DNA of 42,492 nucleotides, from positions 1 to 42,492 of the IMG/VR virus record IMGVR_UViG_3300019877_000001; one strand, given 5' to 3'. Source of the DNA: a virus. Taxonomy: Duplodnaviria; Caudoviricetes. The first letter of the stretch is position 1. Each line of letters starts with the position of its first letter. Below the pieces are notes generated by a model that worked only from the letters and a program-made list of their open reading frames with translations, did not search any database and had not been told where the DNA came from. Both the position numbers and the translations under genes were made by a program. Shown one piece after another: positions 3,691-21,299 of this stretch.

Positions 3691-3723
3691 CCCCTTCTAT
3701 TATAATCCACGTTTTTACTGCGA
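3691..3723 (-). promoter_or_regulatory. Phage promoter-like motif, copy upstream of the nuclease-nuclease-RNAP operon
   Basis: TCGCAGTAAAAACGTGGATTATAATAGAAGGGG aligns without gaps to five copies at 17.7-21.3 kb. Confidence 0.7.
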
Positions 3724-3737
3724 GGTAGTAGGTACTT

Positions 3738-4229
3738 TTATTTAGCCCACTCGACATTATGCATGATGGGGAAAACGCGAGTCAGGTTGATGGCTGACAT
3801 AACTACATCCATGTACAACAGACCATAAGTCAGTACGAACGACCAGACACTATCGAACACTTCGTCAGTTTGTTTGTCTCTGACTGGATAATATTCCGGA
3901 AGATCCAATTTGAACTGTCGACCATGCTTCAAGGCAAACCAACGTGGACGCCATAGAAGATTGCTTGCCTTGCAGTCTACCGAATTACCATTGAGATGGA
4001 TCGGTGTTGTGAATGGCACAATTTGATTTGTGTTCGGTACGAACGTTTCGCAGATCAGTCTAGACAAAGAACGTTTTACTTGTGTACCCTCTCGCATAAG
4101 ACAAATATAGCTAACTTCCGACTGATTGCGAATTGGCGTCAACAACTTAGATCGTTTGTCGTTGCGTACTCGACCGAGATCACTGACCGAATACCCAGGA
4201 TAGTCTTGAAGGGGTAACCACACCTCCAT
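3738..4229 (-). CDS. NUMOD4 + HNH-like homing endonuclease-type protein (HNH motif degenerate)
   Basis: N-terminal EVWLPLQDYPGYSVSDLGRVRN (NUMOD4); HLNGNSVDCKASNLLW resembles an HNH_3 motif. Confidence 0.75.
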   Translation of the reverse strand: MEVWLPLQDYPGYSVSDLGRVRNDKRSKLLTPIRNQSEVSYICLMREGTQVKRSLSRLICETFVPNTNQIVPFTTPIHLNGNSVDCKASNLLWRPRWFALKHGRQFKLDLPEYYPVRDKQTDEVFDSVWSFVLTYGLLYMDVVMSAINLTRVFPIMHNVEWAK

Positions 4230-4279
4230 ATTGTCTCCTATGTCTTATCTGTACACTTTGCCCTATATTGTAGGCATTT

Positions 4280-4490
4280 GACAATTCCAAGATTTTTCGA
4301 AAAAACTTTTTTATATTTTCGTAGTTAGTAGGTACTTTATACTCTACGCGCGTAATAGAAAAGTACCTACTAACTATAAAATAAAAAGTTTTTTTTTCAC
4401 AAAAATCTTGGATTTGTCCGCTAGAGGTTATAATCGCAGGTCAGAGTATGTTTTGTTTGCCAAGATTATTTTTGGAAATCTTGGCAGCTG
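4280..4490. repeat. AT-rich nested inverted repeats, candidate replication origin
   Basis: Perfect 17-bp arms 4322-4338/4360-4376 surround the palindrome TACGCGCGTA. Outer arms 4280-4297/4401-4418 have one mismatch. A second IR, GCCAAGATT/AATCTTGGC, lies at about 4459-4486. Confidence 0.8.
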
Positions 4491-4507
4491 AATGCATACA
4501 ATTAACA

Positions 4508-5668
4508 TTAAAAGGACACATCAGACATATTGAAGTCTCGTTTCTCTCGATAGGCTCTTCGCATAGCCACATCGATCCATGCCGAGCTCATCGGAAGATA
4601 GTAAAACAGGTTCGCAAATTCGGTGTTGAGTCGGTCCATTCGCCCGTAAGCCTGTTCGGTCTGTTTGTACGAAGGGTTCTGCGAGTAACAGAATGTCGCG
4701 TTTGTCTCAATACATTCCCAGCCCTCAGCGCCGGCGGCGTATTGCACAAGGTAAACCCAACGCTCAGAATCGGGAATTTCCTCGTGCTTGTGACCGTTCC
4801 ATTCGGCGATTTGTACGTTTTCGAGACCCCTCAAGATCTCTAATTCGTAGTCAAAGTTGTAGAAAACTATGACCCGGGGGTGTTTTTGCAAGACCAATCT
4901 GAGTTCAATTAGCCGATGCGGATGAGTGTTTACCACCTTTCGCATCAAAGAATACAGCTCACCCGAATGTCGAATTGGCTTTTCTTTGAACGGATTCCAT
5001 CGTTTTTTCATTACGAGCTTCATCATTTGTTCGTCATAAGGCACTGGCAAAGTTACGAAGTGTCTCGTTGTGTGTCTTTCGTAGGGCATTCCGACGAGGA
5101 TTTCGTTCCGTCGTCGTACCAGCGTACCGACCTCAACGTATCTATCGATCGCCGGGAATTTTGTATATGACTTATAAATGACATGACGCGCTTTAAACTC
5201 CGTGCGGTTCTTGTAGAAGCCATTTGCGATGAAACAAGGGATGTAATCCATCCAGCTATCTCCTGGGGTAGCTGAAAGGAGGATCCAGGTGTTGTGTTTG
5301 GCAATATGTAGAAATGCCTTGACCCATCCACCACTACCAACAAGACGTTGCTCGTCGAAGATGAAGAAGGCGTCACGAACTTCGCTATATTTGTGGACAT
5401 TATTCCAGCTATCGACCCGTAAGACTCCGGCAACCGTAGCATCAGACGTAGTCCCCACCGCGAACCGTGCGAATTCTCGGTTCCAGTCCAGGCTGTCCCG
5501 CTTCTTTGCTGTCGTTATCACATAGACGTCCCGGTTTGGATATGCCTGGACATAGTGAGCGGCCGCAACCATCGACTTGCCAGAACCGACACCGCCCCAC
5601 AGGATCGATCCGCTCTTCAGTTTCGCCAACGCCTCCTTCTGATGCGGGCGTAGTTCTGTCTTTAACAC
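4508..5668 (-). CDS. Superfamily 2 helicase (start uncertain; ORF track gives 5812)
   Basis: LRPHQ Q-motif, Walker A GGVGSGKS, Walker B variant FIFDEQR, LSATP, motif VI QAYGRMDR. Confidence 0.85.
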   Translation of the reverse strand: MLKTELRPHQKEALAKLKSGSILWGGVGSGKSMVAAAHYVQAYPNRDVYVITTAKKRDSLDWNREFARFAVGTTSDATVAGVLRVDSWNNVHKYSEVRDAFFIFDEQRLVGSGGWVKAFLHIAKHNTWILLSATPGDSWMDYIPCFIANGFYKNRTEFKARHVIYKSYTKFPAIDRYVEVGTLVRRRNEILVGMPYERHTTRHFVTLPVPYDEQMMKLVMKKRWNPFKEKPIRHSGELYSLMRKVVNTHPHRLIELRLVLQKHPRVIVFYNFDYELEILRGLENVQIAEWNGHKHEEIPDSERWVYLVQYAAGAEGWECIETNATFCYSQNPSYKQTEQAYGRMDRLNTEFANLFYYLPMSSAWIDVAMRRAYREKRDFNMSDVSF

Positions 5669-5825
5669 GCTCGATTGGTTTGTCGACCCAAACACGTCGA
5701 CCCTTGTGTCCGCAGAAGGGACATCCCTCCCAAGTGTCCTCTCCATCAAAGATGTAGACATAGCATCCTTCGTTGTCGCAAAAGTAATACGGCATGGGGA
5801 CTTTGAGCTCAATGTATTCAGGCAT
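5442..5825 (-). CDS. Zinc-ribbon protein; C-terminal half overlaps the helicase frame
   Basis: ATG at 5825 overlaps the upstream TAA; motif CDNEGC...CPFC. Confidence 0.5.
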   Translation of the reverse strand: MPEYIELKVPMPYYFCDNEGCYVYIFDGEDTWEGCPFCGHKGRRVWVDKPIERVKDRTTPASEGGVGETEERIDPVGRCRFWQVDGCGRSLCPGISKPGRLCDNDSKEAGQPGLEPRIRTVRGGDYV

Positions 5826-6001
5826 TATTCCGGACTCCATTTAGTAATATTAAACGATAGATTCTCCACCAAGATCCCTCGGGTAACACATACCGGGCAA
5901 GGACTGTAATTATCGGGGATGAACAGATAGATCTCACAATATTCGTTCATGCACTGAAACAAGATTGCTGGTAGTGGTCTGAAAGTTTCGTCAGCAGCCA
6001 T
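5825..6001 (-). CDS. Small zinc-ribbon protein
   Basis: CMNEYC...CPVC; ATG at 6001 overlaps the upstream TGA. Confidence 0.6.
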   Translation of the reverse strand: MAADETFRPLPAILFQCMNEYCEIYLFIPDNYSPCPVCVTRGILVENLSFNITKWSPE

Positions 6002-6111
6002 CAGAATCTCCTCAAGCAATACCCAGTACTACTGTAGACACAACCTGAGGTTGAGCATGTGCCTCCGCTATTGGCGGCATGACCGTTCGGACAAATGTCT
6101 TCTATTCGCAT
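6001..6111 (-). CDS. 36-aa Cys-rich peptide
   Basis: Hand translation MRIEDICPNGHAANSGGTCSTSGCVYSSTGYCLRRF*; GGAGG upstream; TGATG coupling to the next gene. Confidence 0.5.
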   Translation of the reverse strand: MRIEDICPNGHAANSGGTCSTSGCVYSSTGYCLRRF

Positions 6112-6314
6112 TCGTTCTGCCCTCCTAGATACTTAATTTGATACAGATGGTAGGACCTACTGGCGCATACCTCATCGAAGTAGATTAACATCCAACCTCC
6201 ACTACGAATTTCGACTATGTCACCCACAAAACCGTTTAATTCGTCCGATTTGTCTATGATCTTTACCTGGTACCTATCCCCCACCAAGATCCTCCTCAGA
6301 TAAACATAAGACAA
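6102..6314 (-). CDS. Small KOW/SH3-like beta protein
   Basis: VKII...NGFVGDIVEI...MLIYFD pattern, similar to the 8042 ORF. Confidence 0.5.
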   Translation of the reverse strand: MSYVYLRRILVGDRYQVKIIDKSDELNGFVGDIVEIRSGGWMLIYFDEVCASRSYHLYQIKYLGGQNECE

Positions 6315-6319
6315 GTAGA

Positions 6320-6349
6320 AGGCGGGAGCTCCCGAAGGAACCCCCGCCT
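6320..6349 (-). terminator. GC-rich hairpin with cUUCGg loop, likely intrinsic terminator
   Basis: Minus strand AGGCGGGGGTTCC-TTCG-GGAGCTCCCGCCT followed by TCTACTTGTCTT. Confidence 0.7.
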
Positions 6350-6700
6350 CCCCTACATCCCGACTGGCCGCGTGTTACAGCCCTTGAGTATGACTCTCCT
6401 TGATTATTGTTACGGCGCCTCCCGCAACATCAAGAAGTACTCGGTAAACCAATCGGGAGGGCTTTATCCTGATCCGCCACAGAAAGTACAGCAGTGAGTA
6501 CCGCCGTGTCCTTCCGGTTTGTCGCATACGTGCGGGCTTCCCGGCAAACGTTCCGGACATGTACCGAAAGACACTCCGCAAAGTAGTTCTGGTGCCATAA
6601 TTTAAGTCTCTCCAACTAAATCACTATTAGTGCAGGCCTAACCCCTCACCTGCTCGACGACTCCCACATCAACTGGGGGTTGGCATGGCCAGAGACTGTC
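6350..6700 (-). ncRNA. Candidate ~350-nt structured non-coding RNA (strand not certain)
   Basis: Many nested stems found by eye and no convincing ORF; ends at the UUCG hairpin. Confidence 0.4.
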
Positions 6701-6717
6701 GTCTTCCCATCGTTCTA

Positions 6718-6912
6718 TCAGTCGCCGTCTGCGTCTCGAGTCACATCCAGAATGAACTCTTCCGCCTCGTCGTCCGTGTCCTCACCCGGATCGAAGCCGT
6801 CTTCGCTGACGTCGTCATCGTCTTTCTTACCCATGTTCTTTGTCCTTGTCTTCTTGCCGTATGTTCGTTTGGATTTCTTCGGATTGAAGCGTTTGTTTCT
6901 TCGTTTCGACAC
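6718..6912 (-). CDS. Small protein with basic N-terminus and acidic C-terminus
   Basis: K/R-rich first half, D/E-rich second half; GC3-rich codons. Confidence 0.6.
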   Translation of the reverse strand: MSKRRNKRFNPKKSKRTYGKKTRTKNMGKKDDDDVSEDGFDPGEDTDDEAEEFILDVTRDADGD

Positions 6913-6914
6913 GC

Positions 6915-7439
6915 CTACTCAGCCCTGTGTTGACCCTCGTCGAACACACCGGTGTTGGGGAACGTCTCGGTCTCTCCGACGTACTTGATGGGCGGGAGTG
7001 ACATGCCCTTCTGCGTGCCGAACGTCTCCGCGGTCAGTTCCGCGTCCCTCTTGGCGTAATCCGTCAATGATTCCAGAGCCCTGCCCCCCGGGGCGAAGTC
7101 GTTTTCGGGAACAGCAGTCGGCAGATCGAACGTGGTCCAGAATGTCTGCTCGCGGTAAATGTGAATCTCACCACGAAGCGGAACGATCCAGTCGGTTATC
7201 CGGACGAACAGCTGTGTAACCTCACCAGCCGATACGTCCTTGCCACGCTGAGCGTCGAAGACGAAGTACGGTCGTCCGTCAGCACCGTAGAACAACTCCT
7301 CCTCGAACTCGAGGGAGAGCCTGCCGATGTTCTCGGCAGTGACCTGAATGGCCTCGGTGTGGATGCCCTTGGGATGGTAATCGCAGGGGATGGGGTTGAG
7401 ATGTGAGAGACCGACATCCGCGGAGCTGATTCCTGCCAT
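6915..7439 (-). CDS. Hypothetical protein, paralogue of the 7586 and 8847 ORFs
   Basis: RBS GAAGGAATC before the ATG at 7439; EAIQVTAEN...DWIV...GEIHIY...F..TF. Confidence 0.7.
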   Translation of the reverse strand: MAGISSADVGLSHLNPIPCDYHPKGIHTEAIQVTAENIGRLSLEFEEELFYGADGRPYFVFDAQRGKDVSAGEVTQLFVRITDWIVPLRGEIHIYREQTFWTTFDLPTAVPENDFAPGGRALESLTDYAKRDAELTAETFGTQKGMSLPPIKYVGETETFPNTGVFDEGQHRAE

Positions 7440-7585
7440 GATTCCTTCTTTCGTTTCGTTCCTTACCTGCAGAATCCCACTTTTCTGAATGACTCTTGTA
7501 GCTACGAGCTCGGCGAGTCGGTCTTGCCAGACGGCACTGAGGACAACGAAGCTAGCTGCGCGGACGACCTGGAAAACAGGGTGCA

Positions 7586-8008
7586 TTAAACCACCTTCTC
7601 AAATGACGTGGGAACACCCGGGACCATGGTGTAGCCGGAGTTTGTGGTGGGCAGGGACTCCTCCTCTTCCGCGAGAGCCTCCGTCGCGGTGGCCAGCAGC
7701 TGCTTGGCTTCCCGGTCGTCCTTCACCTTCTCCTCGAAAGCGCCGAAGAACTGAGCGGGCTTGTAGGACCGGAAGCTGCCCTTGAGCTCGACGACGAAGC
7801 TGCCCAGGGATGCGATGTACTCCTGTCCACGGTTCACGCCCGTGCCCTGGATTTTGATGACTGGAAGCAAGGTCTCGGTGCCCATCATCTTCGTGGGCAC
7901 TTCCTCGATGGTGCCCTTGCACCACTCGGCGACCTCCTCGATGTTCTTCAGGGTCACCTCGACCGCGACGACCGGGAAGGTCTTGCGCACGTATTCCTTG
8001 AATTCCAT
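7586..8008 (-). CDS. Hypothetical phage protein (PGDYG-like small beta domain)
   Basis: YVRK..VVAVEVT..NIEEVAEWC.G...ASLGSFVV...F..YK...F...FE. Confidence 0.8.
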   Translation of the reverse strand: MEFKEYVRKTFPVVAVEVTLKNIEEVAEWCKGTIEEVPTKMMGTETLLPVIKIQGTGVNRGQEYIASLGSFVVELKGSFRSYKPAQFFGAFEEKVKDDREAKQLLATATEALAEEEESLPTTNSGYTMVPGVPTSFEKVV

Positions 8009-8041
8009 GTGTCCTCTTTCGGGTAGCGATTTGTAGATGAA

Positions 8042-8227
8042 TCAGATTTCGGGGCTGAACTTCTCGACCTTGTTACGGTAGAACCACAACGTTTCGGAGT
8101 CGCTGGTGACCTCTATCTGTACCATGTCTTTTTCGTCACTCTCGCACTTGACGAAGCCTGTTTGCCCCGCCCATGCACCAGCAGTTATCTTGACCCAATC
8201 GTTGAATTTGAAGATGAGATCGGACAT
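8042..8227 (-). CDS. KOW-motif protein
   Basis: FKFNDWVKITAGAWAGQTGFV matches the KOW consensus (GD.V.I..G.F.G..G.V). Confidence 0.65.
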   Translation of the reverse strand: MSDLIFKFNDWVKITAGAWAGQTGFVKCESDEKDMVQIEVTSDSETLWFYRNKVEKFSPEI

Positions 8228-8241
8228 CTTTCGTACCTCGC

Positions 8242-8826: not shown

Positions 8827-8846
8827 TTCGTTCGCCTTTCAATTTG

Positions 8847-9059
8847 TCAAGCTTTGAATACTTCGAACTTTCCATCGTCAGTACCGATGATCAAGTCGCC
8901 GATTGAGGCTCGATCAACGCCGTTTCCTACCGGGACATTGATACCCGGAGAAGTCTGATCGGCGTTGAATGGATCAATCTCTGCAACGACACGACCACCA
9001 CACCATTCGGCGATCTCCTGAGCGTTGTCGTGCCTCAGGACTCTGGTCTCAGAAGCCAT
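8847..9059 (-). CDS. Hypothetical protein, paralogue of the 7586 ORF
   Basis: NAQEIAEWCGG...RASIGDLII...GKFEVFK. Confidence 0.7.
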   Translation of the reverse strand: MASETRVLRHDNAQEIAEWCGGRVVAEIDPFNADQTSPGINVPVGNGVDRASIGDLIIGTDDGKFEVFKA

Positions 9060-9878: not shown

Positions 9879-9884
9879 TACCTC

Positions 9885-10325: not shown

Positions 10326-10723
10326 CAGTCCTTCTTCGTGATCGTGGTGTCTTGCCCGGTCTCCTCCTGGAGGATGTTGATGTCTCCCACCAGGTCGTGA
10401 ATCTCGTGTGCGTCCTGCTGGTCCTGGGTGTTCGGGTTGGTCACGGTAACTCCTTTTTCTGTCCAGGGTAGATGTGGTACGTTTCCGGCGAATTTTGCGC
10501 CGAGGCCTAATTCTTTGGCCATTCCCGGCTCGGTGATAGTCACGTGGACTTCGAACGAACCGTCGGGAAGCTCTTCCACTTCAGCTTCCCCGAGTTCAAC
10601 ACGATCGGGTCCATCCCCTAACATCAGACGGACCCGCTTCTTTTCTCCCATTGTCATACAAGCTTCTCCATAACATCCTTCAGCTACACAGACGTTGGAG
10701 TTCTTGCCGTCGCATGGTCTCAA
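10325..10723 (-). CDS. Hypothetical protein (start uncertain)
   Basis: ORF directly downstream of the polymerase. Confidence 0.6.
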   Translation of the reverse strand: MRPCDGKNSNVCVAEGCYGEACMTMGEKKRVRLMLGDGPDRVELGEAEVEELPDGSFEVHVTITEPGMAKELGLGAKFAGNVPHLPWTEKGVTVTNPNTQDQQDAHEIHDLVGDINILQEETGQDTTITKKD

Positions 10724-13700
10724 GCAACGAACTCCTCGAACGAACCGAACTTCTCGATCTGCTTCTTGGCATCATCGACCAAGCGATCGAAGTAGCTACG
10801 ATCGATGTCGAGCTTCTGGTTCATAGCCTTGGCGGCGTCAGACTCGACCCAGAAATATCCCTTCGTTCCGGCAACTGCGTATTCCTTGTCCTCGAACTTC
10901 CGAACCAGTTTGCCGCCTACGCCAGACGACTCTGTCACCGGAATGAATCGACCAGTCCTGCCCACGAAATGCGGACCGCTTTCGAAATTCAGATACATGA
11001 AGCCCTTGGCCACTTGCTTCGTCTCCGCGAGATCCTTCTCCAGAATAACATCACCGGAGAACAAAGTCTTGAAGACGTAGGGCACCTTGAACTGGGCACC
11101 GACGGCATACCAATCGATGTCGTTCCCGTTGCTAGTCTTGGCGACGTAGACGGCATCATTGACGAGACAGAACTTCTGGTAGGTCGATTCGTGCTCGAAC
11201 GTGTATCCGAACTTCTCGCCGAAATCAAACACCAAGTCGATGACTTCGTCGTTCGCGTCAGCGATTTTGATCGAGTCCGTCTTGATGTGTACTACCTTGT
11301 GCCCCAGTTCCTGGATGTGGTTCTTGAGCTGCACCATGAACAGAGCACCGCGTTTCGCGGCAATATTGTCCTTGTTCCTCTTGTCCCGGAAGGGACTATC
11401 GAACGTGGCGGACGTAAGGCCGTAAACGATGTTGATGACAATCTTGAGAGCGTACGACAAATCCTTCGCCGAACCCTCATCCTTGAGATAAGGTTCCAGC
11501 TTGCCGTCCAACATCTCACGAGCACCTTTGTAATCTCCTCTCTTGATAGCGAGACGAGCATCCATCAGAGCCTTGAAGTTCTTCGTGTAGTCACCGAACA
11601 TGTTCAGCTTGATAAGCGACGTAGGATGCATTGATGCCACATCAAGCAATGCCACATTGCTATATATTCCTGGCTCGGCGTAGACGTAGCCACCCTCACC
11701 AAGCACTTCGCCCATGTACGTCGACTTGCCCATGTCGTACTCGTACCCGGGAAATTCCTCAGATAGATCCGTATAAACGAAATGCGATTGCGGATTGCGA
11801 TCACCCTCGAAAATGATCTGAGCAGTGTGCTTGGATGTGGGATCGTTGACTGTCAGACCACTGAGCTCAGCGAGAATCTGCCTCGCCACGAAGTCCTGCT
11901 CACGGTCCTCGAACGTGGCCTCTGTTGCCATGACATCGTTGCAACAGTACTCGACGACCTTGGGCCAGAGCTCTTCCGGGACATCCTGATCCCAGGGGTG
12001 ATCCATCTCCATGTGCGGGATGTCGAGCTCGATCTCGAACTTCTTGAGCGACTGCTTCTTACTCGAGAAATCCCAGATGTCCGTGTACGACAGAGCATAT
12101 GCCGCAGCGAACGTTGCACCGACTTTATTGTTGATCAGTCGCTGACTGAGTTCGAACAACTGTGCATTGTTGTAGCCCATGTATCGACCATAGAGAATGT
12201 GGTTGTCGAACCTGCGGTTGTAGAAGCCCACCAATTTCAGTTTGAACAAAGCCTCCACATCCTGGGCGGAGGGGTTGATCATACGAACGATGGTGTCCGA
12301 TCCCTGATACTTCCAGCAGACGACGAAGAGATTGGGGAAAACTTCGGTGTCGAAGAAAACCAGGGGTTGTTCGTCGTCCATACTTGCGCGGGGTTCCGGA
12401 ATGGATCCAGGTACGGCCTCACTCGAGAAACGCATCCGTTGGACGACCTTGAGGCAGGCGAGTGCCTGGTTCGTGCTGTTGTTGGCAAAGGCGATAACCT
12501 TGGGCCGCAGATCGGAGACGTCGTAGGCAAGGCCGGAAGCATACGCGTCTTGTAGAATTTTTGCGATAAAGTCAATTGAAGGCTTCGTTCCCGGATGAAT
12601 CTCCTTTTTGAAATTTCGTGCGATGAGATCACGAAGGCCTTTTTCGCTCTTGATCGTGTGTTCCGAGAGCACGTTTGTCTTCTCCCTGAGAGGTAGGCCA
12701 CTGTTGATGGTGGCAATAGGAACGGCATTGCACTTGGTGAGTCTCCGTCGGAGCGAAGCTTTCCCAGTGAATACCTTGACCTCGATGCCCTCGGAGAAGA
12801 CTCGAGAGAGCTGAGAAACATCGCCATCGTAGTAGTAATGGAGATGAACGCCTTCGCTACTTTTGGATAGTTCGGCATATGTTGGTGGCCAATTCGAAGC
12901 GGCTTCAAGATTTCGAGCGAGTGCTTTCCCACCGTTTTCTCCCTTTAAATCAAAATCTATCACTATCAAATTTTGTGGAACCATGACGAAATGTTCGAGA
13001 TGAGTATCAATTTCGTTCAGTGTTGTCGTTACCTTGGACCACGATAGCGACGGCGTTCCTGCGCTATTCGAGACCTGAGCGAGCTGAGTACTGAGTATCT
13101 CGTCAAGTAGAGATACTTTGTCCTCGATGACCAACGAGAACACCGTCTCGTTCTTTGTCGGCTTCTTGTATTTATTGGCGCTGAAACCACTGTAATAACT
13201 TCGTAGCGTCTCGCCATTGACCTCCACCTTATCCTTGAAACCCTCAAAGTAGTTTCGCAGTTCTTCGCGGAGTTTGTACTGAGGTAGCGGCTTCTCGATA
13301 CCGGTGTTGGCACAGTACTCTTTGTACAATTCGTACGCTTGCTTTAGGGTGGCGCCATCTTGCGATTTGAAGATTTCGTAATACGCCTCGATGAAGTTGA
13401 AGACGATGTCTGTCTGCAGCATCATCTCGGTCGGTTGATAACCGTTGTAGTAGTTCCTACCCATCCTCCGGTAGGTATCGAGACAGTGCTTCGCGATGGC
13501 ACCGAGCTCGAAATCAATCCGACTGTTTAGGCTGTTGTATTTGTTTGGGGGAATCAGGACGCCAGTAGGATTGATGTCGATCAGGCGTCTGATTATACCG
13601 GATTTGGCGTCCGAGATCTTTACAGGTTGATTCGTACCCATGAATAGAAGAGCATTCACCCGGCCCGTGTAGCTGGGCTTGTACTTCTCGTTCATCCGGA

Positions 13701-14451
13701 TGTCTTCGTGCGCGACAATCGAATTGAGCTTGGTGTTGTCGTCTATCCTGCTCAGATCCCCATCGTGCTGGATCGCAACAAGGGGGTTGCTCTTGAAGGC
13801 TTCTGTCGCGAAGGCGCTGTTGCTCGAGCCAAGAGCCTTCGCCTCGAAGGTCGCTGTGTATCCTTCGAAGAGCTTCTCTACGATCGACATGATGGTACTC
13901 TTGCCAGTCCCAGGATGTCCGTAGAATACGAAGAATTTCTGGATCTTCTTGGAATCTCCGGATATGATCGAACCAATTGCCCATTCGATTTTAGCCCTTT
14001 CCTCAACCGAATAGAGCGTCCCTACCAATTCGTCCCAAGAAGAATGATCTCCCTCCTCAAGAGAATATGGCAGTCGACGACTTACATAATCGGAGCGTTT
14101 CACCTCCTGATTAGCGAATGTCAAAGTCTCGTCCAGCTGATGAAAGCTGTCACTGATGTTGGCGAGGAACATTCGATAGTTGATCCACGACTTGTTGTTG
14201 TAATTCGTCATGGATTTGATGATTACGGTTTTACCCGCATACTTCTCTTTCGCGTATGCCCGCATTTCCGCATCCATTAGCCGACCGACATCATACTCGT
14301 CGGTCGACCACATCCCAGCCTCGTCATCCCAGATGGCATAGAACGAACGTCCTCGTACCATTAGATCTTTCGATCTACCTACCACAAAGTTGGGGGTTAG
14401 CGTAAGACCGCCGTCTTTTTTCTCGTCTACTTGCATGGTGTAGAAGTCCAC
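10720..14451 (-). CDS. Multifunctional replicase: SF3 (D5-like) helicase + AEP/prim-pol-like primase + 3'-5' exonuclease + family B DNA polymerase
   Basis: Walker A YGHPGTGKST and LLFMGTN; VIDFD...SKSSEGVHLHY; ExoI-III FFDTEVF, YNRRFD, YCCND; PolB motifs LDVASMHP, KIVINIVYG, IKTDSI. Confidence 0.88.
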   Translation of the reverse strand: MDFYTMQVDEKKDGGLTLTPNFVVGRSKDLMVRGRSFYAIWDDEAGMWSTDEYDVGRLMDAEMRAYAKEKYAGKTVIIKSMTNYNNKSWINYRMFLANISDSFHQLDETLTFANQEVKRSDYVSRRLPYSLEEGDHSSWDELVGTLYSVEERAKIEWAIGSIISGDSKKIQKFFVFYGHPGTGKSTIMSIVEKLFEGYTATFEAKALGSSNSAFATEAFKSNPLVAIQHDGDLSRIDDNTKLNSIVAHEDIRMNEKYKPSYTGRVNALLFMGTNQPVKISDAKSGIIRRLIDINPTGVLIPPNKYNSLNSRIDFELGAIAKHCLDTYRRMGRNYYNGYQPTEMMLQTDIVFNFIEAYYEIFKSQDGATLKQAYELYKEYCANTGIEKPLPQYKLREELRNYFEGFKDKVEVNGETLRSYYSGFSANKYKKPTKNETVFSLVIEDKVSLLDEILSTQLAQVSNSAGTPSLSWSKVTTTLNEIDTHLEHFVMVPQNLIVIDFDLKGENGGKALARNLEAASNWPPTYAELSKSSEGVHLHYYYDGDVSQLSRVFSEGIEVKVFTGKASLRRRLTKCNAVPIATINSGLPLREKTNVLSEHTIKSEKGLRDLIARNFKKEIHPGTKPSIDFIAKILQDAYASGLAYDVSDLRPKVIAFANNSTNQALACLKVVQRMRFSSEAVPGSIPEPRASMDDEQPLVFFDTEVFPNLFVVCWKYQGSDTIVRMINPSAQDVEALFKLKLVGFYNRRFDNHILYGRYMGYNNAQLFELSQRLINNKVGATFAAAYALSYTDIWDFSSKKQSLKKFEIELDIPHMEMDHPWDQDVPEELWPKVVEYCCNDVMATEATFEDREQDFVARQILAELSGLTVNDPTSKHTAQIIFEGDRNPQSHFVYTDLSEEFPGYEYDMGKSTYMGEVLGEGGYVYAEPGIYSNVALLDVASMHPTSLIKLNMFGDYTKNFKALMDARLAIKRGDYKGAREMLDGKLEPYLKDEGSAKDLSYALKIVINIVYGLTSATFDSPFRDKRNKDNIAAKRGALFMVQLKNHIQELGHKVVHIKTDSIKIADANDEVIDLVFDFGEKFGYTFEHESTYQKFCLVNDAVYVAKTSNGNDIDWYAVGAQFKVPYVFKTLFSGDVILEKDLAETKQVAKGFMYLNFESGPHFVGRTGRFIPVTESSGVGGKLVRKFEDKEYAVAGTKGYFWVESDAAKAMNQKLDIDRSYFDRLVDDAKKQIEKFGSFEEFVA

Positions 14452-14460
14452 GAAACCCCC

Positions 14461-15695: not shown

Positions 15696-15703
15696 AGTCC
15701 CCT

Positions 15704-16618
15704 TCAGATCTGGTTCCAGATGACCCCGTCGACGTTGAAGTCGAGGAGGATGGCGTCTTCGCGACCGTTGACGAAGTCCCGAACTCGATCGTTGATCTTG
15801 TCGTCGAAGATCCCGAAATCGACATAGTCGTCGCCACCCTTGCCGTGAACCCAGCCGACAGCCGCGCCGGCGCCGGAACGCGGAAGACCCAGCGCATCGT
15901 AGACTTCGTTCAGGAACACGTGACCGCGAGCCTGCAGCATGTCGTTCGCGTAGTTCTGCTGCGCCTTCAGGAAGATCATGTTGTACTCGGGGTTGCGCTT
16001 GAAGTCCGGGCAGAGCTCGTCGAAGAACCGCGCGTACTGCGAAGGCTGATCGTCGCCGACCCGAGTAACCTTGACGACCTTCTTCTTGCCATCGTCGCCC
16101 TCGACGGTCTCCTTGTCTTCGCGAGTGCCGTAGCGGAGATCGCGGTCGGCTTCCTCGCCGAGCTGCTCACGAACACGGTCGCGGTACTGGTTGAACGCCT
16201 GGTCGGTCGCCGCGTAGGCCGCAGACAACGACGCGTTCCTACGGTTCAGGGTGATGTGAGAGCCGGTCAGCAGAGCCACCGAGATCATCGCCAGACCAGC
16301 CGCTGGCGCGTACAGCTTGGTGACGTTCAGAACGGTCTTGACCTTGATGACGGTCAGGTCCTTGGCGTACTGCTTGTCGGTGTACTCGACAGCGTGGTCG
16401 CTCTGAGCACCAGCCGAATGAAGCTGCTCGGCCTTGAACTTAAGCTCCTCGGCCTCCAGCAGAACATCGCTGAGCTTCAGCGTGCTCCGGCAGGCCAGAA
16501 CAGTCGCACCGAGACCGGCGGCCACACCGCCGACGAACATGACCTGAGGGGAGGTCTTCTGCAAGTGCAGCAGCTGACGGCCGAACTTGACCGAGACCGC
16601 CTTGGGAATGAATTTCAT
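15704..16618 (-). CDS. DUF6353-like protein
   Basis: SP.I/V..G.AG N-terminus, YAP...N..LSAAY, C-terminal GHVFLNEVYDALG...VGW. Confidence 0.7.
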   Translation of the reverse strand: MKFIPKAVSVKFGRQLLHLQKTSPQVMFVGGVAAGLGATVLACRSTLKLSDVLLEAEELKFKAEQLHSAGAQSDHAVEYTDKQYAKDLTVIKVKTVLNVTKLYAPAAGLAMISVALLTGSHITLNRRNASLSAAYAATDQAFNQYRDRVREQLGEEADRDLRYGTREDKETVEGDDGKKKVVKVTRVGDDQPSQYARFFDELCPDFKRNPEYNMIFLKAQQNYANDMLQARGHVFLNEVYDALGLPRSGAGAAVGWVHGKGGDDYVDFGIFDDKINDRVRDFVNGREDAILLDFNVDGVIWNQI

Positions 16619-16761
16619 GAATCTTCCTTATCGTTTCGCTTGGCGTACTTGTTGACTTGGATTTCTAGATTTCCCGCGCCAATGGTTATGAAGAATTGCC
16701 TCCAACTAAAAATCTCCCAGCCAACATAGTTGTTGGAGTAGGAATGAAACCAATCCGGCAT
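16615..16761 (-). CDS. Small hypothetical protein (48 aa)
   Basis: AAGG before the ATG at 16761; ATGA overlap with the next gene. Confidence 0.5.
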   Translation of the reverse strand: MPDWFHSYSNNYVGWEIFSWRQFFITIGAGNLEIQVNKYAKRNDKEDS

Positions 16762-16768
16762 CCTTGTC

Positions 16769-17410
16769 TTACTCGATGGATTGCGGCTTCGGGAGGTTAA
16801 GGATATAGCCTTCCCGAGTCCTTTGAACATTAGCTCCATTAAGCTCAACCCAGCCCCATTTCTGATCGACGTAGGATGATGACCAGCCGACAAGACTGTG
16901 GAGATCCGCAACACTAGCGACCTCGTATTCGCGGAGCAGATCGTACATTCGATCCAGGACAGTCTCAGCTTCTACCCGAGTCGCCAAGAGTATGTCATCG
17001 ATCGTGTGACTACGTGCTTGTGCGGTTGGACGTCGATCTTCAACTCCAGATCGCCCAATTGGATTGTTACCGCGAACGGAGTATCTGGTGTAATTGGTAG
17101 GTCCTGGAGTGCGTGCGCCACCGCCGAACCTGTTTCGCGGGCGATGTTCTCCATAAATCAGCCTTTCGAAACCCTGACTAGCCGCCTCAGTTATCATGTC
17201 CTTGGCTTGCGGCACAAGCACGTCCATCACGACGTACTGAACTACGCTTCGTGAGTCTCCGCCGATGAAGACATCTTTGAAGCGCTTGAAGAGCCCTCGC
17301 TTTCGTGCCTGCACCTCTCCGGTGACCACCGACTCGACTTTCTTCGGCTCACTTCCCTGAGGTTGAGGGTTGGGCTTGCTTTTGGAATTTCCTGGGAATT
17401 CGGTTGTCAT
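16769..17410 (-). CDS. Hypothetical protein sharing its C-terminal domain with the DUF6353-like genes
   Basis: ASVADLHSLVG...KWGW resembles the C-termini of the 15704 and 18456 ORFs. Confidence 0.8.
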   Translation of the reverse strand: MTTEFPGNSKSKPNPQPQGSEPKKVESVVTGEVQARKRGLFKRFKDVFIGGDSRSVVQYVVMDVLVPQAKDMITEAASQGFERLIYGEHRPRNRFGGGARTPGPTNYTRYSVRGNNPIGRSGVEDRRPTAQARSHTIDDILLATRVEAETVLDRMYDLLREYEVASVADLHSLVGWSSSYVDQKWGWVELNGANVQRTREGYILNLPKPQSIE

Positions 17411-17434
17411 GACCCTCTATTCGTGGAAATGAGA

Positions 17435-17465
17435 AAACCTAAACCCCTTGTGGGGTTGTCGGTTT
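17435..17465 (-). terminator. Cassette terminator (copy 1)
   Basis: AAACC-GAC-AACCCC-ACAA-GGGGTT-TA-GGTTT then TCTCATTT, just after a stop codon. Confidence 0.7.
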
Positions 17466-17470
17466 GATTG

Positions 17471-17731
17471 TCACTTGTCGGAGGTCTTACGATTCTTGAT
17501 GTGCTTGTCGTACAAGACGACCATCTCATCGATCTTGCGGTCCGTGTAGTTCGAAGTGATTTCGCTCAGGGAATAGCCGATAGCAGCGCTGGCAGCTGTC
17601 ACAGTCACCTGGGAGGGGATTGTGGTAGTGTCTACGTTGTTCTCGATGATTCCTTTGACGATCTTCGTGATACCGAACCCAACGATCGTTGATACGGTCT
17701 TCTTGGCAACAGCAAGCTTGTCAAACTTCAT
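17471..17731 (-). CDS. Small cassette protein (86 aa)
   Basis: Has its own promoter motif, GAAAGGA RBS and terminator. Confidence 0.75.
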   Translation of the reverse strand: MKFDKLAVAKKTVSTIVGFGITKIVKGIIENNVDTTTIPSQVTVTAASAAIGYSLSEITSNYTDRKIDEMVVLYDKHIKNRKTSDK

Positions 17732-17746
17732 TTGTTGTCCTTTCAT

Positions 17747-17779
17747 GGGGTCTCACTATAAGCCATGTAAATTTTGCGA
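17747..17779 (-). promoter_or_regulatory. Phage promoter-like motif
   Basis: TCGCAAAATTTACATGGCTTATAGTGAGACCCC, identical over 33 bp to 20439-20471. Confidence 0.8.
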
Positions 17780-17799
17780 GGGGGCGGGCGCCTTTTAGT

Positions 17800-17892
17800 C
17801 GTCAGCGGTCGTTTAAGATTGGCGTCTGGAATAGGGATGAGACCCCTACCGTGCGGGTAGCCGCTCGCACAGCAAAGCCCTCGCCAATCCCC
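17800..17892 (-). ncRNA. Candidate structured RNA (three-way junction plus pseudoknot) in an intergenic gap
   Basis: GAUUGGCG/CGCCAAUC closing stem, two inner hairpins, and loop AGCGG complementary to downstream CCGCU. Confidence 0.5.
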
Positions 17893-17898
17893 TACCTA

Positions 17899-18447
17899 TT
17901 ACTCCGGTCGACCGAGCTTGGCCTTGAATGCCCTCGCGAGCTCCGCCTTATCCATGGCCTGGAGTTCAGCGTCCGTTGGGTGACGATGCTCTCGCTCCCA
18001 AGCCGGACGCTCGTCCTTCTTCTCGGCGAAGGGGTCCGGTGCCTTCGAGTTTCCGGTCTGCTTCGCCAGCTGCTCCTTCATCTCCTTCTGCATCTTCTCG
18101 GGGACGAGTTGATTGATGAAAGCGGCCGACGCTTTCGCATCGGTGGCCAGTTCCATCAGCAACTCGTCGTAGGCCGGTGAATCCAGCAAATAGCTTTGCG
18201 CTTCTGGAGTCTTGAGGAAACGCGTGCCGTCTTCCGATCGCATGCCAACTGACAACTTGATGAAATCACGAAGCTCGTTGAGGATCGCTTTTCCGTCCTG
18301 AGCAGCGATGATGCGCTCGATGCGCTTCTTCATGTCATCGCCACTGAAAGCCAGTTCCATGAACTCGGCCTTGGAAATGTGGAAATAGAAGTCTTGCGAT
18401 TGCTGCTCACCTTCGAAGTCCTCGAAGGTGATGGTCTTCTTGAACAT
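17899..18447 (-). CDS. Phage protein, probably tail-assembly-chaperone family, located outside the tail module
   Basis: KKTITFEDFEG...DFYFHISKAE...G.RSEDG.RF.K...AYDELLMEL; family assignment is from recollection only. Confidence 0.5.
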   Translation of the reverse strand: MFKKTITFEDFEGEQQSQDFYFHISKAEFMELAFSGDDMKKRIERIIAAQDGKAILNELRDFIKLSVGMRSEDGTRFLKTPEAQSYLLDSPAYDELLMELATDAKASAAFINQLVPEKMQKEMKEQLAKQTGNSKAPDPFAEKKDERPAWEREHRHPTDAELQAMDKAELARAFKAKLGRPE

Positions 18448-18455
18448 CGGTTTCC

Positions 18456-19232
18456 TTACTGGCAGCGATCGTAACCGCGGATCGGCACCTTGTTGTAGCT
18501 GATGGAAATGGCCGGCCTTCCGTCCTGAAGAACCGTTGTACCGTATTCGACGTCGAGCAGTTCGTCGCTGTTCCAGCCGAATTCGTCGGAGATCTGCGTC
18601 TTGGGGAGACCGATCATCTCGTAGAAATCGGAAAGCGAGGCACAGTAGAAGTTGTTGATCTTGTAGTTGATCTCGTTGACGGCCTTACGGATCGTCTCCA
18701 TCTCGTTCTTGAAGTAACGACCCGACCATTCGTCGAAGAACACTACTTCCGACCCGGAGATGATGACGACTTCACTACCGGGAGTTCGAGCCATCTTGTC
18801 CGCGGCGAGCTCAGTCCGCATTTTCTCTTCGTTCTTAAGGCCGAGAGTCTTGACGACCCTGTCCTTGTATTCCCCAGAGAGTTGCTCGGACAATTTGAAA
18901 GCAGCCGCGATAGCCGCTGCTCTGCGCGATCCGATGTGATTCGCCGCCACGATGCAGGTGATGGTCGCCGAACCAGCGATGATCGGAGGAACGAATTCGT
19001 TCCAATATGTCTTGATCAGATGCTTCGGTTCGAGTAGGTGAGCGGGGAGAGGCTCGCCTTCCTCGAGTGCTTCGTGATACTGAGTGCCGGCGTCCATGCC
19101 GACTCGATAGGCGGATCGACCGGTCAGGATCGCCGTTGTGATTGCGCCCGCCACTCCGAGACCGGTCAAGATCCCGGGGGAATTGTCGGTGACAAACTTC
19201 TCAGTTGCCTGAAGAACCGTCTTCCACGTCAT
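18456..19232 (-). CDS. DUF6353-like protein (second paralogue)
   Basis: NSPGILTGLGVAG...Y..P...ASLSDFYEMIGL...FGW. Confidence 0.7.
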   Translation of the reverse strand: MTWKTVLQATEKFVTDNSPGILTGLGVAGAITTAILTGRSAYRVGMDAGTQYHEALEEGEPLPAHLLEPKHLIKTYWNEFVPPIIAGSATITCIVAANHIGSRRAAAIAAAFKLSEQLSGEYKDRVVKTLGLKNEEKMRTELAADKMARTPGSEVVIISGSEVVFFDEWSGRYFKNEMETIRKAVNEINYKINNFYCASLSDFYEMIGLPKTQISDEFGWNSDELLDVEYGTTVLQDGRPAISISYNKVPIRGYDRCQ

Positions 19233-19428
19233 CTGTATCCTCCTTTTTCGGATAATCAGCGAATCGGCCTTCTTTCTCAGCCAAATCTATCTCAAGTTTC
19301 ATTTCCGCGATCCGGCCTTTTTGTCTACTTCTTTCCGCCAGAAATTCCAACGTCTTGACGGCTAGAGCCATGAGGAACATCAAGACAATCAAAACAATTA
19401 CGAAACGGAGGACATCGTTCTCAGGCAT
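19201..19428 (-). CDS. Small membrane protein
   Basis: One hydrophobic helix, FVIVLIVLMFLMALAV. Confidence 0.65.
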   Translation of the reverse strand: MPENDVLRFVIVLIVLMFLMALAVKTLEFLAERSRQKGRIAEMKLEIDLAEKEGRFADYPKKEDTDDVEDGSSGN

Positions 19429-19891
19429 TATTCAACACCACGTTAGTGGTGACCCCCATAGCCTTGAACTCGAATGAGAGTGTGTTGAAACCGACAACGA
19501 ACTCCTTGGAATCGGCTTGCGACATGATTATTCCGTCCGTCTCTACCTTGTCGGAGACAATCGTGTCACCATTCGATCCTTGAGTCTTGAAAGTGCCGTT
19601 CCAGTACAACATCGATGTCGGTCCGTTCACCAACCGAATCGCGATTGAATCGTCCCGCACGGTTGCATCGAAGCGCAAATCGTTGACCTCGGCAGTCCAC
19701 TCGCCGTCGAGCTCGATCATCGGGAGCGCCACGCTAGTTGCATGAGTACCTTCGACGTTGGGGGCGGTGTCGGACGAGTTGTTTGACGAGATCATAGTCG
19801 ATACCAGGGCGATGGCCCCGAACACCATCACCAGGGCAATGAGCACCCCAACGATGAGCGGGGTGTTGCGGCGAGTAGCATTGTGCGCCAT
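19421..19891 (-). CDS. Membrane-anchored protein with a beta-rich domain
   Basis: RBS GAAGGAGA before the ATG at 19891; basic N-terminus, TM helix, S/T/P linker. Confidence 0.75.
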   Translation of the reverse strand: MAHNATRRNTPLIVGVLIALVMVFGAIALVSTMISSNNSSDTAPNVEGTHATSVALPMIELDGEWTAEVNDLRFDATVRDDSIAIRLVNGPTSMLYWNGTFKTQGSNGDTIVSDKVETDGIIMSQADSKEFVVGFNTLSFEFKAMGVTTNVVLNNA

Positions 19892-19916
19892 TTCTTTCTC
19901 CTTCATAGTTTTTGTC

Positions 19917-20038
19917 AAAAATAAGAAGAGGTGTTAGCCCAACGAAAGCTAACCGTTAAGCAGCTATCTCATTGCTGCCACTCCGGGTAGGGGTCTAACC
20001 TACACATTCGTGTCTCGGAACCTTGCGGTCTCTTCTCT
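19917..20038 (-). ncRNA. Candidate ~120-nt multi-stem small RNA with its own promoter
   Basis: Starts just after the promoter motif; AGAAGAG/CUCUUCU closing stem followed by UAUUUUU; four to five internal hairpins; no ORF. Confidence 0.65.
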
Positions 20039-20065
20039 CCATTATATGGCCTGTAATTCCTGCGA
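20033..20065 (-). promoter_or_regulatory. Phage promoter-like motif
   Basis: TCGCAGGAATTACAGGCCATATAATGGAGAGAA. Confidence 0.75.
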
Positions 20066-20066
20066 T

Positions 20067-20150
20067 TCACACAACTAGTAGAACAACGGTCGCGAATATT
20101 GCTGATAATACGATCACCGCAATGATGAAAGCTATGAACTCTACGTCCAT
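20067..20150 (-). CDS. 27-aa hydrophobic peptide
   Basis: MDVEFIAFIIAVIVLSAIFATVVLLVV*; G-run upstream; fills the gap between a terminator and the next promoter. Confidence 0.55.
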   Translation of the reverse strand: MDVEFIAFIIAVIVLSAIFATVVLLVV

Positions 20151-20171
20151 CGAACCCCCCACAGATCGGCG

Positions 20172-20198
20172 AAACCTAAACCCCTTGCGGGGTAGGTT
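20172..20198 (-). terminator. Cassette terminator (copy 2)
   Basis: AACCTA-CCCC-GCAA-GGGG-TT-TAGGTTT, directly after a stop codon. Confidence 0.7.
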
Positions 20199-20200
20199 AT

Positions 20201-20422
20201 CTACTTGAACTTTGCTTTGGCTGCAATAACAGCGATCTCACAGATGGTGTTCAGTGCTTTGTTCGCAGCGATCACAGCGCCGACAGCGCCGATAGCTTTC
20301 ACTGTGTATTCCGTAGCGATCTTAGCGATCTGCTCGGGATCCACAGAAATGGTCTCGGGTGCGTCGACACCGTTCTCGGCGTCCTTCACGAACTTCACCT
20401 GCATAGAGCGGTTTTTGAACAT
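20201..20422 (-). CDS. Small cassette protein (73 aa)
   Basis: Has its own promoter motif, TAAGGA RBS and terminator. Confidence 0.75.
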   Translation of the reverse strand: MFKNRSMQVKFVKDAENGVDAPETISVDPEQIAKIATEYTVKAIGAVGAVIAANKALNTICEIAVIAAKAKFK

Positions 20423-20438
20423 GGCTTATCCTTAAGTA

Positions 20439-20471
20439 GGGGTCTCACTATAAGCCATGTAAATTTTGCGA
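20439..20471 (-). promoter_or_regulatory. Phage promoter-like motif
   Basis: Identical to 17747-17779; abuts the upstream terminator. Confidence 0.8.
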
Positions 20472-20503
20472 AACCTAAAGCCCTTGTGGGGGGCTCGAGG
20501 TTT
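20471..20503 (-). terminator. Cassette terminator (copy 3)
   Basis: AAACCT-CG-AGCCC-CCCACAA-GGGCT-TT-AGGTTT. Confidence 0.7.
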
Positions 20504-20508
20504 GTGAG

Positions 20509-20691
20509 TCAGTTTTCCTTCTGGGCGTCTTCCATTAGTTCGGTGATGATGTCCTTCTTGTCGACGGCTTTCTTCGCACGGCGCTCCTTCACCTTGTCCA
20601 CAATCAGCACGGTTGTGATGATGACTGCAGAATAGGCGAGGGCACCGACGACGGGGCCGGCAATGATGGCGACATCTTTCTTGTTGAACAT
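20509..20691 (-). CDS. Small single-TM cassette protein (60 aa)
   Basis: GAAAGGA RBS before the ATG at 20691; TM helix then charged tail. Confidence 0.75.
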   Translation of the reverse strand: MFNKKDVAIIAGPVVGALAYSAVIITTVLIVDKVKERRAKKAVDKKDIITELMEDAQKEN

Positions 20692-20707
20692 GGTAGTTCC
20701 TTTCATA

Positions 20708-20740
20708 GGGGTCTCATTATAGGCCTTGTAAATCCTGCGA
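20708..20740 (-). promoter_or_regulatory. Phage promoter-like motif
   Basis: TCGCAGGATTTACAAGGCCTATAATGAGACCCC. Confidence 0.8.
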
Positions 20741-20766
20741 CCAAAATTTAAACCACGTGTTTATTG

Positions 20767-20814
20767 CTCGAAAACCATACGACACGTAGGGATCTACATG
20801 CCGTATGGCTCGAG
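20767..20814 (-). terminator. Long hairpin after a cassette gene (terminator or processing stem)
   Basis: 16-bp stem GCCAUACGGCAUGUAG/CUACGUGUCGUAUGGU (three G-U pairs) plus a CUCGA/UCGAG extension. Confidence 0.6.
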
Positions 20815-20835
20815 GCTTTTTGGTGTTTAGCTTGG

Positions 20836-21249
20836 TCAGATGATCTTCCTCAGAAGCCCGAAGGTCTTCGTGGCGATCACGTGTGCTCGTTCGTGATTCA
20901 GGATCATGAACATTCCAGCGAGGTGGGTTCCGACAGTCACCCAGGTCTCCAGGCTGACGGAGTCTTTCTTGCGCATTTCGATGAGCTTGGCGCTTGCGGC
21001 GACTGCCTTACCGTACTCTTCGGTTTGGTTCCTCCGAAGTTGATACAGCTTGGCAACCGCGTTGGCCATTTTGTCGTACTCTTCGTCATACGCAGTCAGG
21101 TTCTCCATCAACCCGAACAACTGCATGATTTGCTTGTCGAGTTCTGTCTCGACCTCGTCTTTCGTGTCCAGTTCATCCATTATCTCGAACGAGTTAGTGA
21201 TCTGCTCGTCGAGTTCCTTCTCAACTTCGTCTTCTTGTCGTTTGAACAT
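20836..21249 (-). CDS. Cassette protein with internal tandem duplications
   Basis: Has its own promoter motif and GAAAGG RBS; two duplicated helical segments. Confidence 0.75.
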   Translation of the reverse strand: MFKRQEDEVEKELDEQITNSFEIMDELDTKDEVETELDKQIMQLFGLMENLTAYDEEYDKMANAVAKLYQLRRNQTEEYGKAVAASAKLIEMRKKDSVSLETWVTVGTHLAGMFMILNHERAHVIATKTFGLLRKII

Positions 21250-21265
21250 GGCTTAAACCTTTCAT

Positions 21266-21298
21266 AGGGTCTCATCATAAGCCATGTTTATCTTGCGA
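21266..21298 (-). promoter_or_regulatory. Phage promoter-like motif (first of the cassette region)
   Basis: TCGCAAGATAAACATGGCTTATGATGAGACCCT, immediately after the holin stop. Confidence 0.78.
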
Positions 21299-21299
21299 G

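Follow-up and report, generated by a model that had tools for sequence, protein, structure and literature searches.

Introduction

Phage RNA polymerases with promoters of their own are known, and the repeated motif and the protein treated here are each already in print. The subject is a stretch of 42,492 nucleotides (nt) from a Caudoviricetes virus, IMG/VR record IMGVR_UViG_3300019877_000001 (the window, i.e., the whole stretch that was analysed), in which a short motif occurs six times and a protein of 884 amino acids (aa) is encoded that is predicted to be an RNA polymerase. The window is a near-complete siphophage genome of the Streptomyces cluster BI / Lactococcus 1706 supercluster. Judged from sequence, the six repeats are probably promoters read by the phage's own 884-residue predicted polymerase.

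Among the closest systems described, Thermus phage P23-45 is similar in having single-chain two-barrel polymerases, gp96 (virion) and gp64 (non-virion), with private repeated early promoters (PMC10770324). It differs in its motifs, in having two enzymes and in the fusion of gp96 to the tape measure protein; structural alignments with the Thermus phage polymerases show 13–19% identity. YonO of Bacillus phage SPbeta is likewise a single-chain two-barrel polymerase, of ~100 kDa, but it transcribes late genes from one start, whereas the window sites precede non-structural genes (PMC5467207). The element of the phiKZ non-virion polymerase, T(-3)ATG(+1), abuts the start and ends in the +1 G, which resembles the arrangement proposed here; however the phiKZ enzyme has five subunits, and its motif has four bases, serves late genes and shows no comparable upstream boxes (PMC4666361).

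Closer to the window is the putative polymerase of the actinophage / 1706 / FP_oengus supercluster, PHROG 4291, with which the window gene shares its neighbourhood, a DxDGD loop and terminal helix-turn-helix (HTH) modules (PMC2919709). Koert et al. described a supercluster protein as a possible polymerase with the order HTH-RdRP-HTH, and a term search of the preprint finds no mention of a promoter (bioRxiv 10.1101/842583). As for the motif, Henson et al. reported a 50-base-pair (bp) motif, present five times in the genome of Gordonia phage Vardy, which they interpreted as a sigma70 -10 box (PMC9671010). The Conley paper gives the same sigma70 -10 reading (PMC10868162), the Mossy paper calls the motif a translation start (PMC11008172) and the Fazel paper mentions it (PMC12750149). 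The 50-bp / 43-bp motif of Gordonia cluster DJ is the same element as that of the window, as its place in the central region ahead of small membrane-protein genes and its TATAAT show, and Vardy and Conley are among the phages matched by a 74-base query around one of the window copies (copy 3, below). The DJ papers concern one cluster and make no link to a phage polymerase, to other host phyla or to a +1 position directly after the box. A term search of PMC5513430, PMC7302621, bioRxiv 2022.11.23.517428 and PMC4110766 found no promoter for these clusters, and no published link between motif and polymerase was found, with supplements and the original 1706 and Pepy6/Poco6 descriptions lying outside the search.

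Results and Discussion

Motif copies in the window

A pattern search of the window with TCGCARNAWWWACRNGNNNTATRRT gives exactly six matches without mismatch, all on the minus strand, and no seventh copy is found even when up to three mismatches are allowed. Shuffled sequences yield a mean of 0.04 matches (maximum 1), which upholds the six copies listed by a first-pass annotation of this DNA. The core of each copy is 25 bases; the ranges first annotated extend 8 bases further downstream. The copies, with the hexamer of their third box and the predicted first transcribed base (+1), are:

21274..21298, minus strand: copy 1, TATGAT, predicted +1 G21273, heads gene 20836-21249
20716..20740, minus strand: copy 2, TATAAT, predicted +1 G20715, heads a small membrane-like gene in 20509-20706
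20447..20471, minus strand: copy 3, TATAGT, predicted +1 G20446, heads gene 20201-20422, hairpin upstream
20041..20065, minus strand: copy 4, TATAAT, predicted +1 G20040, heads a non-coding RNA candidate
17755..17779, minus strand: copy 5, TATAGT, predicted +1 G17754, heads gene 17471-17746
3699..3723, minus strand: copy 6, TATAAT, predicted +1 A3698, heads the nuclease-nuclease-polymerase operon, same position in relatives

Each copy consists of three boxes at fixed spacing, TCGCR, WWWACA and TATRRT, followed by purines, and always lies on the coding strand. The motif is one-directional and contains no palindrome. The spacings first given, 13 nt and 5 nt from the TATRRT box to the two upstream elements, are correct, and copies 3 and 5 are, as claimed, identical over 33 bp (20439-20471 and 17747-17779). 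Directly after the box, GAGACCC is found in 4 of the 6 copies, and in 3 of those 4 it is followed by a Shine-Dalgarno-like GAAAGG.

All called genes of the window are on the minus strand. None of the six copies overlaps one of them, which agrees with the placement first described, intergenic and upstream of a gene or RNA; short spurious open reading frames in the mechanical list overlap some copies. Copies 1-5 sit between the holin gene and the replication genes, and the virion-gene block at 21300-42492 has none. The sites precede short non-structural transcription units and the polymerase operon. The copy that had been said to head this operon is copy 6, which lies 910 nt upstream of the 884-aa gene, with two nuclease genes between them:

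3336-3647, minus strand: VRR-nuclease-like gene
2810-3370, minus strand: RecB/Cas4-like gene

A stretch complementary to the GAGACCCCTAC leader lies at ~17836-17850 (minus strand), in the non-coding gap after gene 17899-18447. It also folds as a local hairpin. RosaAsantewaa has a similar stretch complementary to the GAGACCCCTAC leader at L076:26015.

The predicted polymerase

The proposed reader of the motif and its main parts are:

159..2813, minus strand: 884-aa predicted single-chain two-barrel RNA polymerase (PHROG 4291, 1348 bits)
1299..1313, minus strand: DFDGD metal-binding loop; D501, D503, G504 and D505 invariant in 146 aligned homologues
2304..2666, minus strand: three N-terminal HTH-like modules, residues ~50-68, 92-112 and 141-170
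174..242, minus strand: C-terminal HTH, residues 858-880 (Pfam Sigma70_r4_2 / HTH_23)

The protein matches the PHROG 4291 profile over its full length, has the DxDGD loop and carries HTH modules at both ends; judged by eye, the HTH recognition helices are conserved. It has matches in 250 of 50,697 phage records, mostly of Arthrobacter (95), Gordonia (55), Streptomyces (54) and Lactococcus (13), the best being RosaAsantewaa (65%), and the family comprises 916 clusters at 50% identity (E <= 1e-30). An AlphaFold model made from 81 sequences (pLDDT 85) aligns with QDE-1 (Z 15.6 over 370 residues, root-mean-square deviation (rmsd) 4.5) and with Thermus phage P74 gp62 (Z 13.1 over 361 residues, rmsd 4.7). 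It also resembles RDR2 and P23-45 gp64/gp96. The gene is thus predicted from the model (Foldseek E 8e-10) to belong to the two-barrel RNA polymerases of the double-psi beta-barrel fold. A sequence search of the PDB with the protein gave no matches, and the resemblance of its N-terminus to DUF7211 is weak (E = 0.13, below the cut-off). It should be noted that the GenBank depositors labelled the homologue in 1706, orf75, a 'structural protein', and that this label is echoed for Poco6 gp106.

Next to the polymerase gene, at 1-158 (minus strand), the window holds a truncated small acidic gene, which is PHROG 4303 in the references scanned and a candidate cofactor. This small gene is found in all 15 of the 16 reference regions that extend to the polymerase. 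In one Lachnospiraceae bin (G005), eight contigs carry the polymerase gene, which likely reflects several co-binned phages.

Co-occurrence of motif and polymerase

A matrix made from the six window sites detects 7-14 copies on the coding strand in 10 of 11 reference phages from two host phyla (nine of the 11 genomes being scanned as 50-kb parts). Their hosts are Streptomyces, Arthrobacter, Gordonia, Rhodococcus, Microbacterium and Lactococcus, with the addition of a saliva phage. On the opposite strand of these phages no copies are left after matrix refinement; in the first matrix scan FP_oengus showed just two weak sites. The blastn search with 74 bases around copy 3 matched 123 phage records (Gordonia 55, Streptomyces 54, Arthrobacter 6, Rhodococcus 4, Microbacterium 2, Siphovirus 1, Chryseobacterium 1). 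A degenerate pattern is present in 16 of 17 close IMG/VR relatives, and the reversed-pattern control in none.

The scan of GTDB covered 47 of 64 parts and kept 132 loci, none titled Streptomyces. Among 66 contigs with wide flanks, genes of the lineage are present on all 29 that have at least two copies, as against 1 of 37 with a single copy. Chance matches expected from a rough bit count number ~70, with which the single-copy loci agree. Because lineage genes lie beside every multi-copy array, the arrays mark this phage lineage and not host chromosomes. In the 50 genomes tested, the polymerase is present in 17 of 27 multi-copy genomes vs 1 of 23 single-copy genomes, and in most of the multi-copy genomes that have no polymerase match the motif was on a short contig. 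The co-occurrence of motif and polymerase across related genomes, proposed at the outset as a check, is therefore borne out by the references and the multi-copy GTDB contigs. The motif is repeated, one-directional, of fixed spacing, upstream of transcription units and confined to polymerase-encoding phages, traits of a cognate promoter of the P23-45 / phiKZ kind.

An in-register site 0.8-1.6 kb upstream of the polymerase gene occurs at 104 of 116 loci (79 of these sites with at least 15 bits), many of the gut loci among the 116 being near-duplicates. The presence of such sites ahead of the polymerase operon supports positive feedback. However 1706 and HF5 have no site within 2 kb upstream of the operon, the nearest copy being further upstream. 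The autoregulation suggested earlier is thus plausible, but it is not universal.

Comparison with host sigma70 promoters

Counts were made on 107 reference sites; both FP_oengus sites and two Damascus hits of low score were removed beforehand. The columns that stand out most are C2 (103), G3 (98), C4 (103) and C13 (107), and in box 3 T20 (105), A21 (100), T22 (101), A23 (99) and T25 (106). Positions 26 and 27 (+1 and +2) are purines in 107/107 sites. TATAAT is the commonest box 3 hexamer (61/107). At spacers of 16-19 the likeness to a TTGACA -35 hexamer is the same as at control offsets in these sites, and the extended -10 TGn is present in 2 of the 107. A sigma70 scan of 16500-22500 lists none of the five motif copies located there.

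In sigma70 promoters the A at -11 is near-essential and transcription starts ~7 nt downstream of the -10 box. A phage activator can replace the -35 contact, as is the case for T4 MotA/AsiA. The motif could be read in this manner: for host sigmaA/HrdB, TATRRT would serve as the -10 box, and a phage activator at boxes 1-2 would stand in for the -35 contact. The frequency of TATAAT speaks for this explanation, as does the agreement of the -10 part with the published reading for Vardy and Conley, and the Streptomyces -10 consensus is TANNNT (PMC4895711). TAnnnT was scored in any nearby register, with the inner bases of box 3 left unscored, and is present in all sites of the window (6/6) and in all those of Rima, 1706, Circum, Poco6, Damascus and CapnMurica. 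In contrast, it is kept in 2/7 sites of RosaAsantewaa, 0/3 of FP_oengus, 1/4 of G002:C16, 4/10 of G009:C30 and 3/17 of the prophage G020:C17, so most copies of RosaAsantewaa, FP_oengus and G020:C17 are without the -11 A, with their upstream boxes still in register. The A that would be the sigma70 -11 is, as far as can be judged from sequence comparison, dispensable, several lineages being without it.

A pattern for the TTTTAT variant corresponds to an estimated 870 IMG/VR stretches, and of 80 wide loci among them 78 have genes of the lineage and 53 have the polymerase in the flank. Together with the start position discussed below, the loss of the -11 A makes reading by host sigmaA quite improbable. 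The first view of the motif as a non-sigma70 promoter, probably that of the phage polymerase, is supported by the lineage co-occurrence, the lost -11 A and the inferred start. The window copies themselves keep TAnnnT, and thus a secondary use by the host enzyme is possible.

Predicted start position and RNAs behind the motif

For eight distinct tRNA-like genes in the fetched loci, each no more than 60 nt away from a motif copy, ARAGORN places the 5′ end at +1 to +8. A targeted scan that allowed 4-34 nt between box and tRNA yielded 120 loci with 82 distinct sequences, 63 of which have a good motif score and a T-loop; these form 34 clusters. The first paired base of the tRNA-like RNAs is at +1 in 26 of the 34 clusters and at or before +3 in 30, and canonical tRNA position 1 is at or before +5 in 22. 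The latter is the safer figure, since purine leaders pair easily with T-rich tails. The polymerase is encoded by 21 of the 31 carriers searched, and by 16/16 of those with a completeness of 90% or more. A perfect stem of at least 10 bp that covers +8 occurs at 10 of 668 distinct sites, and 9 of the 10 stems begin at -1 to +3.

The tRNA-like RNAs need bases, at +1 to +5, that a sigma70 start would omit, and the start is therefore predicted at the purine after box 3. This is indirect, being judged from RNAs of relatives, but it argues against a sigma70-type start ~7 nt past the box as well as against reading by host sigmaA. The TATRRT box, first described as -10-like, would not be a -10 box; it is better placed as a -6 to -1 element, with the start predicted right after it.

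The tRNA-like RNAs form a widespread family with odd anticodon arms and extended acceptor stems, and end in a T run. The family starts at motif +1 (L474-L593, L083:14636-14711, L205). These RNAs are possibly decoys.

Copy 4 of the window is followed by an RNA candidate of another type:

19920..20040, minus strand: candidate ~120-nt structured RNA behind copy 4, non-coding, non-tRNA, fold z = -2.4

It folds better than shuffled sequences (3/200 shuffles were as good), with a 5′ purine run that pairs with a 3′ pyrimidine run and a terminator-like hairpin at 19933-19953. Rfam and ARAGORN gave no matches anywhere in the window. An exact 23-base search for this RNA in IMG/VR gave none, and blastn against the fetched loci gave partial matches of 30-34 nt only. 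End-closed RNAs are also found behind copies in Gravy (L082:28086), Poco6 (L083:43075) and CapnMurica (L085:23316).

Metatranscriptome contigs

A small share of 16500-22000 is present in five soil metatranscriptome runs; three of these runs were compared, plus one run of unrecorded type. The data are contigs of a related strain, the runs were selected by words from this region, and 24 of 41 RNA pieces were covered. RNA contigs (95-100% identity) extend over the genes that follow copies 1, 2, 3 and 5. Ends 15-26 nt past the box are at 21258 (X1 and X2, two studies), 20699, 20421, 17740 (X1) and 17737 (X2); an X1 contig spans 20504-20699 behind copy 2, and an X2 contig 20204-20421 behind copy 3. 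The opposite ends fall near hairpins:

17442..17457, minus strand: terminator-like hairpin after the copy-5 gene, RNA contig end at 17470
20180-20193, minus strand: terminator-like hairpin after the copy-3 gene, RNA contig end at 20204

In the placement test, made with pieces of at least 100 nt, 6 of 14 pieces in 16500-22000 have an end no more than 30 nt downstream of a box, which was matched by 2 of 100,000 random placements. A contig of X6, the run of unrecorded type, crosses copy 1. Over copies 4 and 6, and over the RNA candidate at 19920-20040, no contig appears among the pieces covered, an absence that carries no weight. The contig ends are a weak hint: they fit a promoter but name no enzyme, and ends at +15 to +26 are also compatible with reading by host sigmaA.

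They also bear on whether the motif is a promoter at all. It could be an operator, at which an HTH protein represses or stops host transcription, or a translation or recombination signal that marks gene starts. Barnes et al. predict a translational start site tied to rearrangements (PMC11008172), and three window copies have the Shine-Dalgarno-like GAAAGG behind them. However the copies also precede tRNA-like and other non-coding RNAs that have no start codon, the motif is one-directional and non-palindromic, and the RNA contigs begin just downstream of the copies. A role of this kind is thus very unlikely.

Specificity and proposed mechanism

The promoter specificity could also reside in a second phage protein, the PHROG 4303 product or another core protein, which would act with the phage polymerase or redirect the host core enzyme. 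The PHROG 4303 gene is encoded right after the polymerase wherever the reference regions reach that far, and for YonO a need for extra factors is left open (PMC5467207). In a covariation analysis with 73 of 85 aligned rows, no polymerase residue tracks the box variants; the highest normalised mutual information is 0.37 and belongs to box 2, and the signal of box 3 goes with the tree (gut clade). A cofactor is possible, given this result and the other universal genes. On the other side, a Pfam scan of the 59 window proteins finds the polymerase as the sole HTH-positive one, with four such modules, and the PHROG 4303 protein has no known function. A second specificity protein is thus considered unlikely.

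With the polymerase itself as the reader of the six promoters, the numbering would place box 1 at -25 to -21, the invariant C at -13 and box 3 at -6 to -1; the predicted first base of the RNA is the purine next to TATRRT on its downstream side. The fused HTH modules may grip boxes 1 and 2, which are one helical turn (11 bp) apart; box 2 itself begins with TCG in 17 of 73 upstream sites, and both the distance and these TCG starts would suit tandem HTH contacts on one helix face. Melting at the start site would take place in the AT-rich box 3, the HTH modules taking the place of a sigma factor. The enzyme may well be virion-borne and would then fire these promoters early; the promoters precede small, mostly non-conserved genes, so that an early role would need enzyme from the virion. 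Copy 6 would raise the polymerase's own synthesis. Transcription of the late genes might come from read-through past the joined genome ends, or else from a separate element at the end.

Several points weigh against reading by the phage polymerase. The activity of the polymerase is itself a prediction. Motif and polymerase are both core to one lineage, so their co-occurrence cannot single out the polymerase, and the PHROG 4303 small gene, DUF6353 and PHROG 4079 are equally universal in it. The lack of a residue that tracks the box variants counts here as well. In each of the six window copies TAnnnT is intact and runs on into purines, and temperate members would need a host-read promoter to start the circuit. 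The count of RNAs paired from +1 is inflated by the ease with which purine leaders pair with T-rich tails. The RNA contigs come from a related strain, from region-selected runs and from 24 of 41 pieces, with those <100 nt excluded, and one short piece (X3, 20698-20740) overlaps copy 2.

A fuller picture can be offered only tentatively, with somewhat less than even confidence. It has a virion-borne, sigma-free polymerase with four HTH modules and a three-box promoter whose start follows a TATAAT look-alike; a promoter that works across Actinobacteria and Firmicutes and drives tRNA-like RNAs whose 5′ ends are not processed; and, at the end of the genome, a related TCGCA hairpin that switches on late genes only once the ends have joined.

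Genome ends and other window features

The window includes neither genome end and breaks off within the last gene. All 8 finished reference genomes have at their end a G-rich/C-rich palindrome whose loop holds a TCGCA-like box, in the strand orientation of the promoter motif. At right genome ends the palindrome is followed by TGCAT and the cohesive end. Carriers are L076, L077, L079, L081-L085 and many of L004-L074. Once the ends join, the palindrome closely precedes the virion operon, in which canonical copies are absent. It is a candidate late promoter, terminase site or terminator.

Other features of the window are:

4230-4500: AT-rich gap with inverted repeats between the helicase and HNH genes, possible replication origin
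5990-6750, minus strand: mostly poor in open reading frames, several GC hairpins, no motif copies
10720-14451, minus strand: 1243-aa helicase-primase-polymerase fusion, PHROG 4210, universal in the lineage
16769-17410: ESM Atlas returns unnamed viral clusters only

Significance

With a defined promoter and a predicted +1, the activity of PHROG 4291, its need for a cofactor and its timing become testable. If true, the present reading corrects the published sigma70 -10 reading of the motif and shows how a minimal relative of the cellular polymerases finds promoters without a sigma factor. The pair of enzyme and promoter is also a possible orthogonal expression system for Streptomyces and gut Firmicutes. 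On the tentative fuller picture given above, early phage expression would be independent of the host, and jumps between host phyla would be eased.

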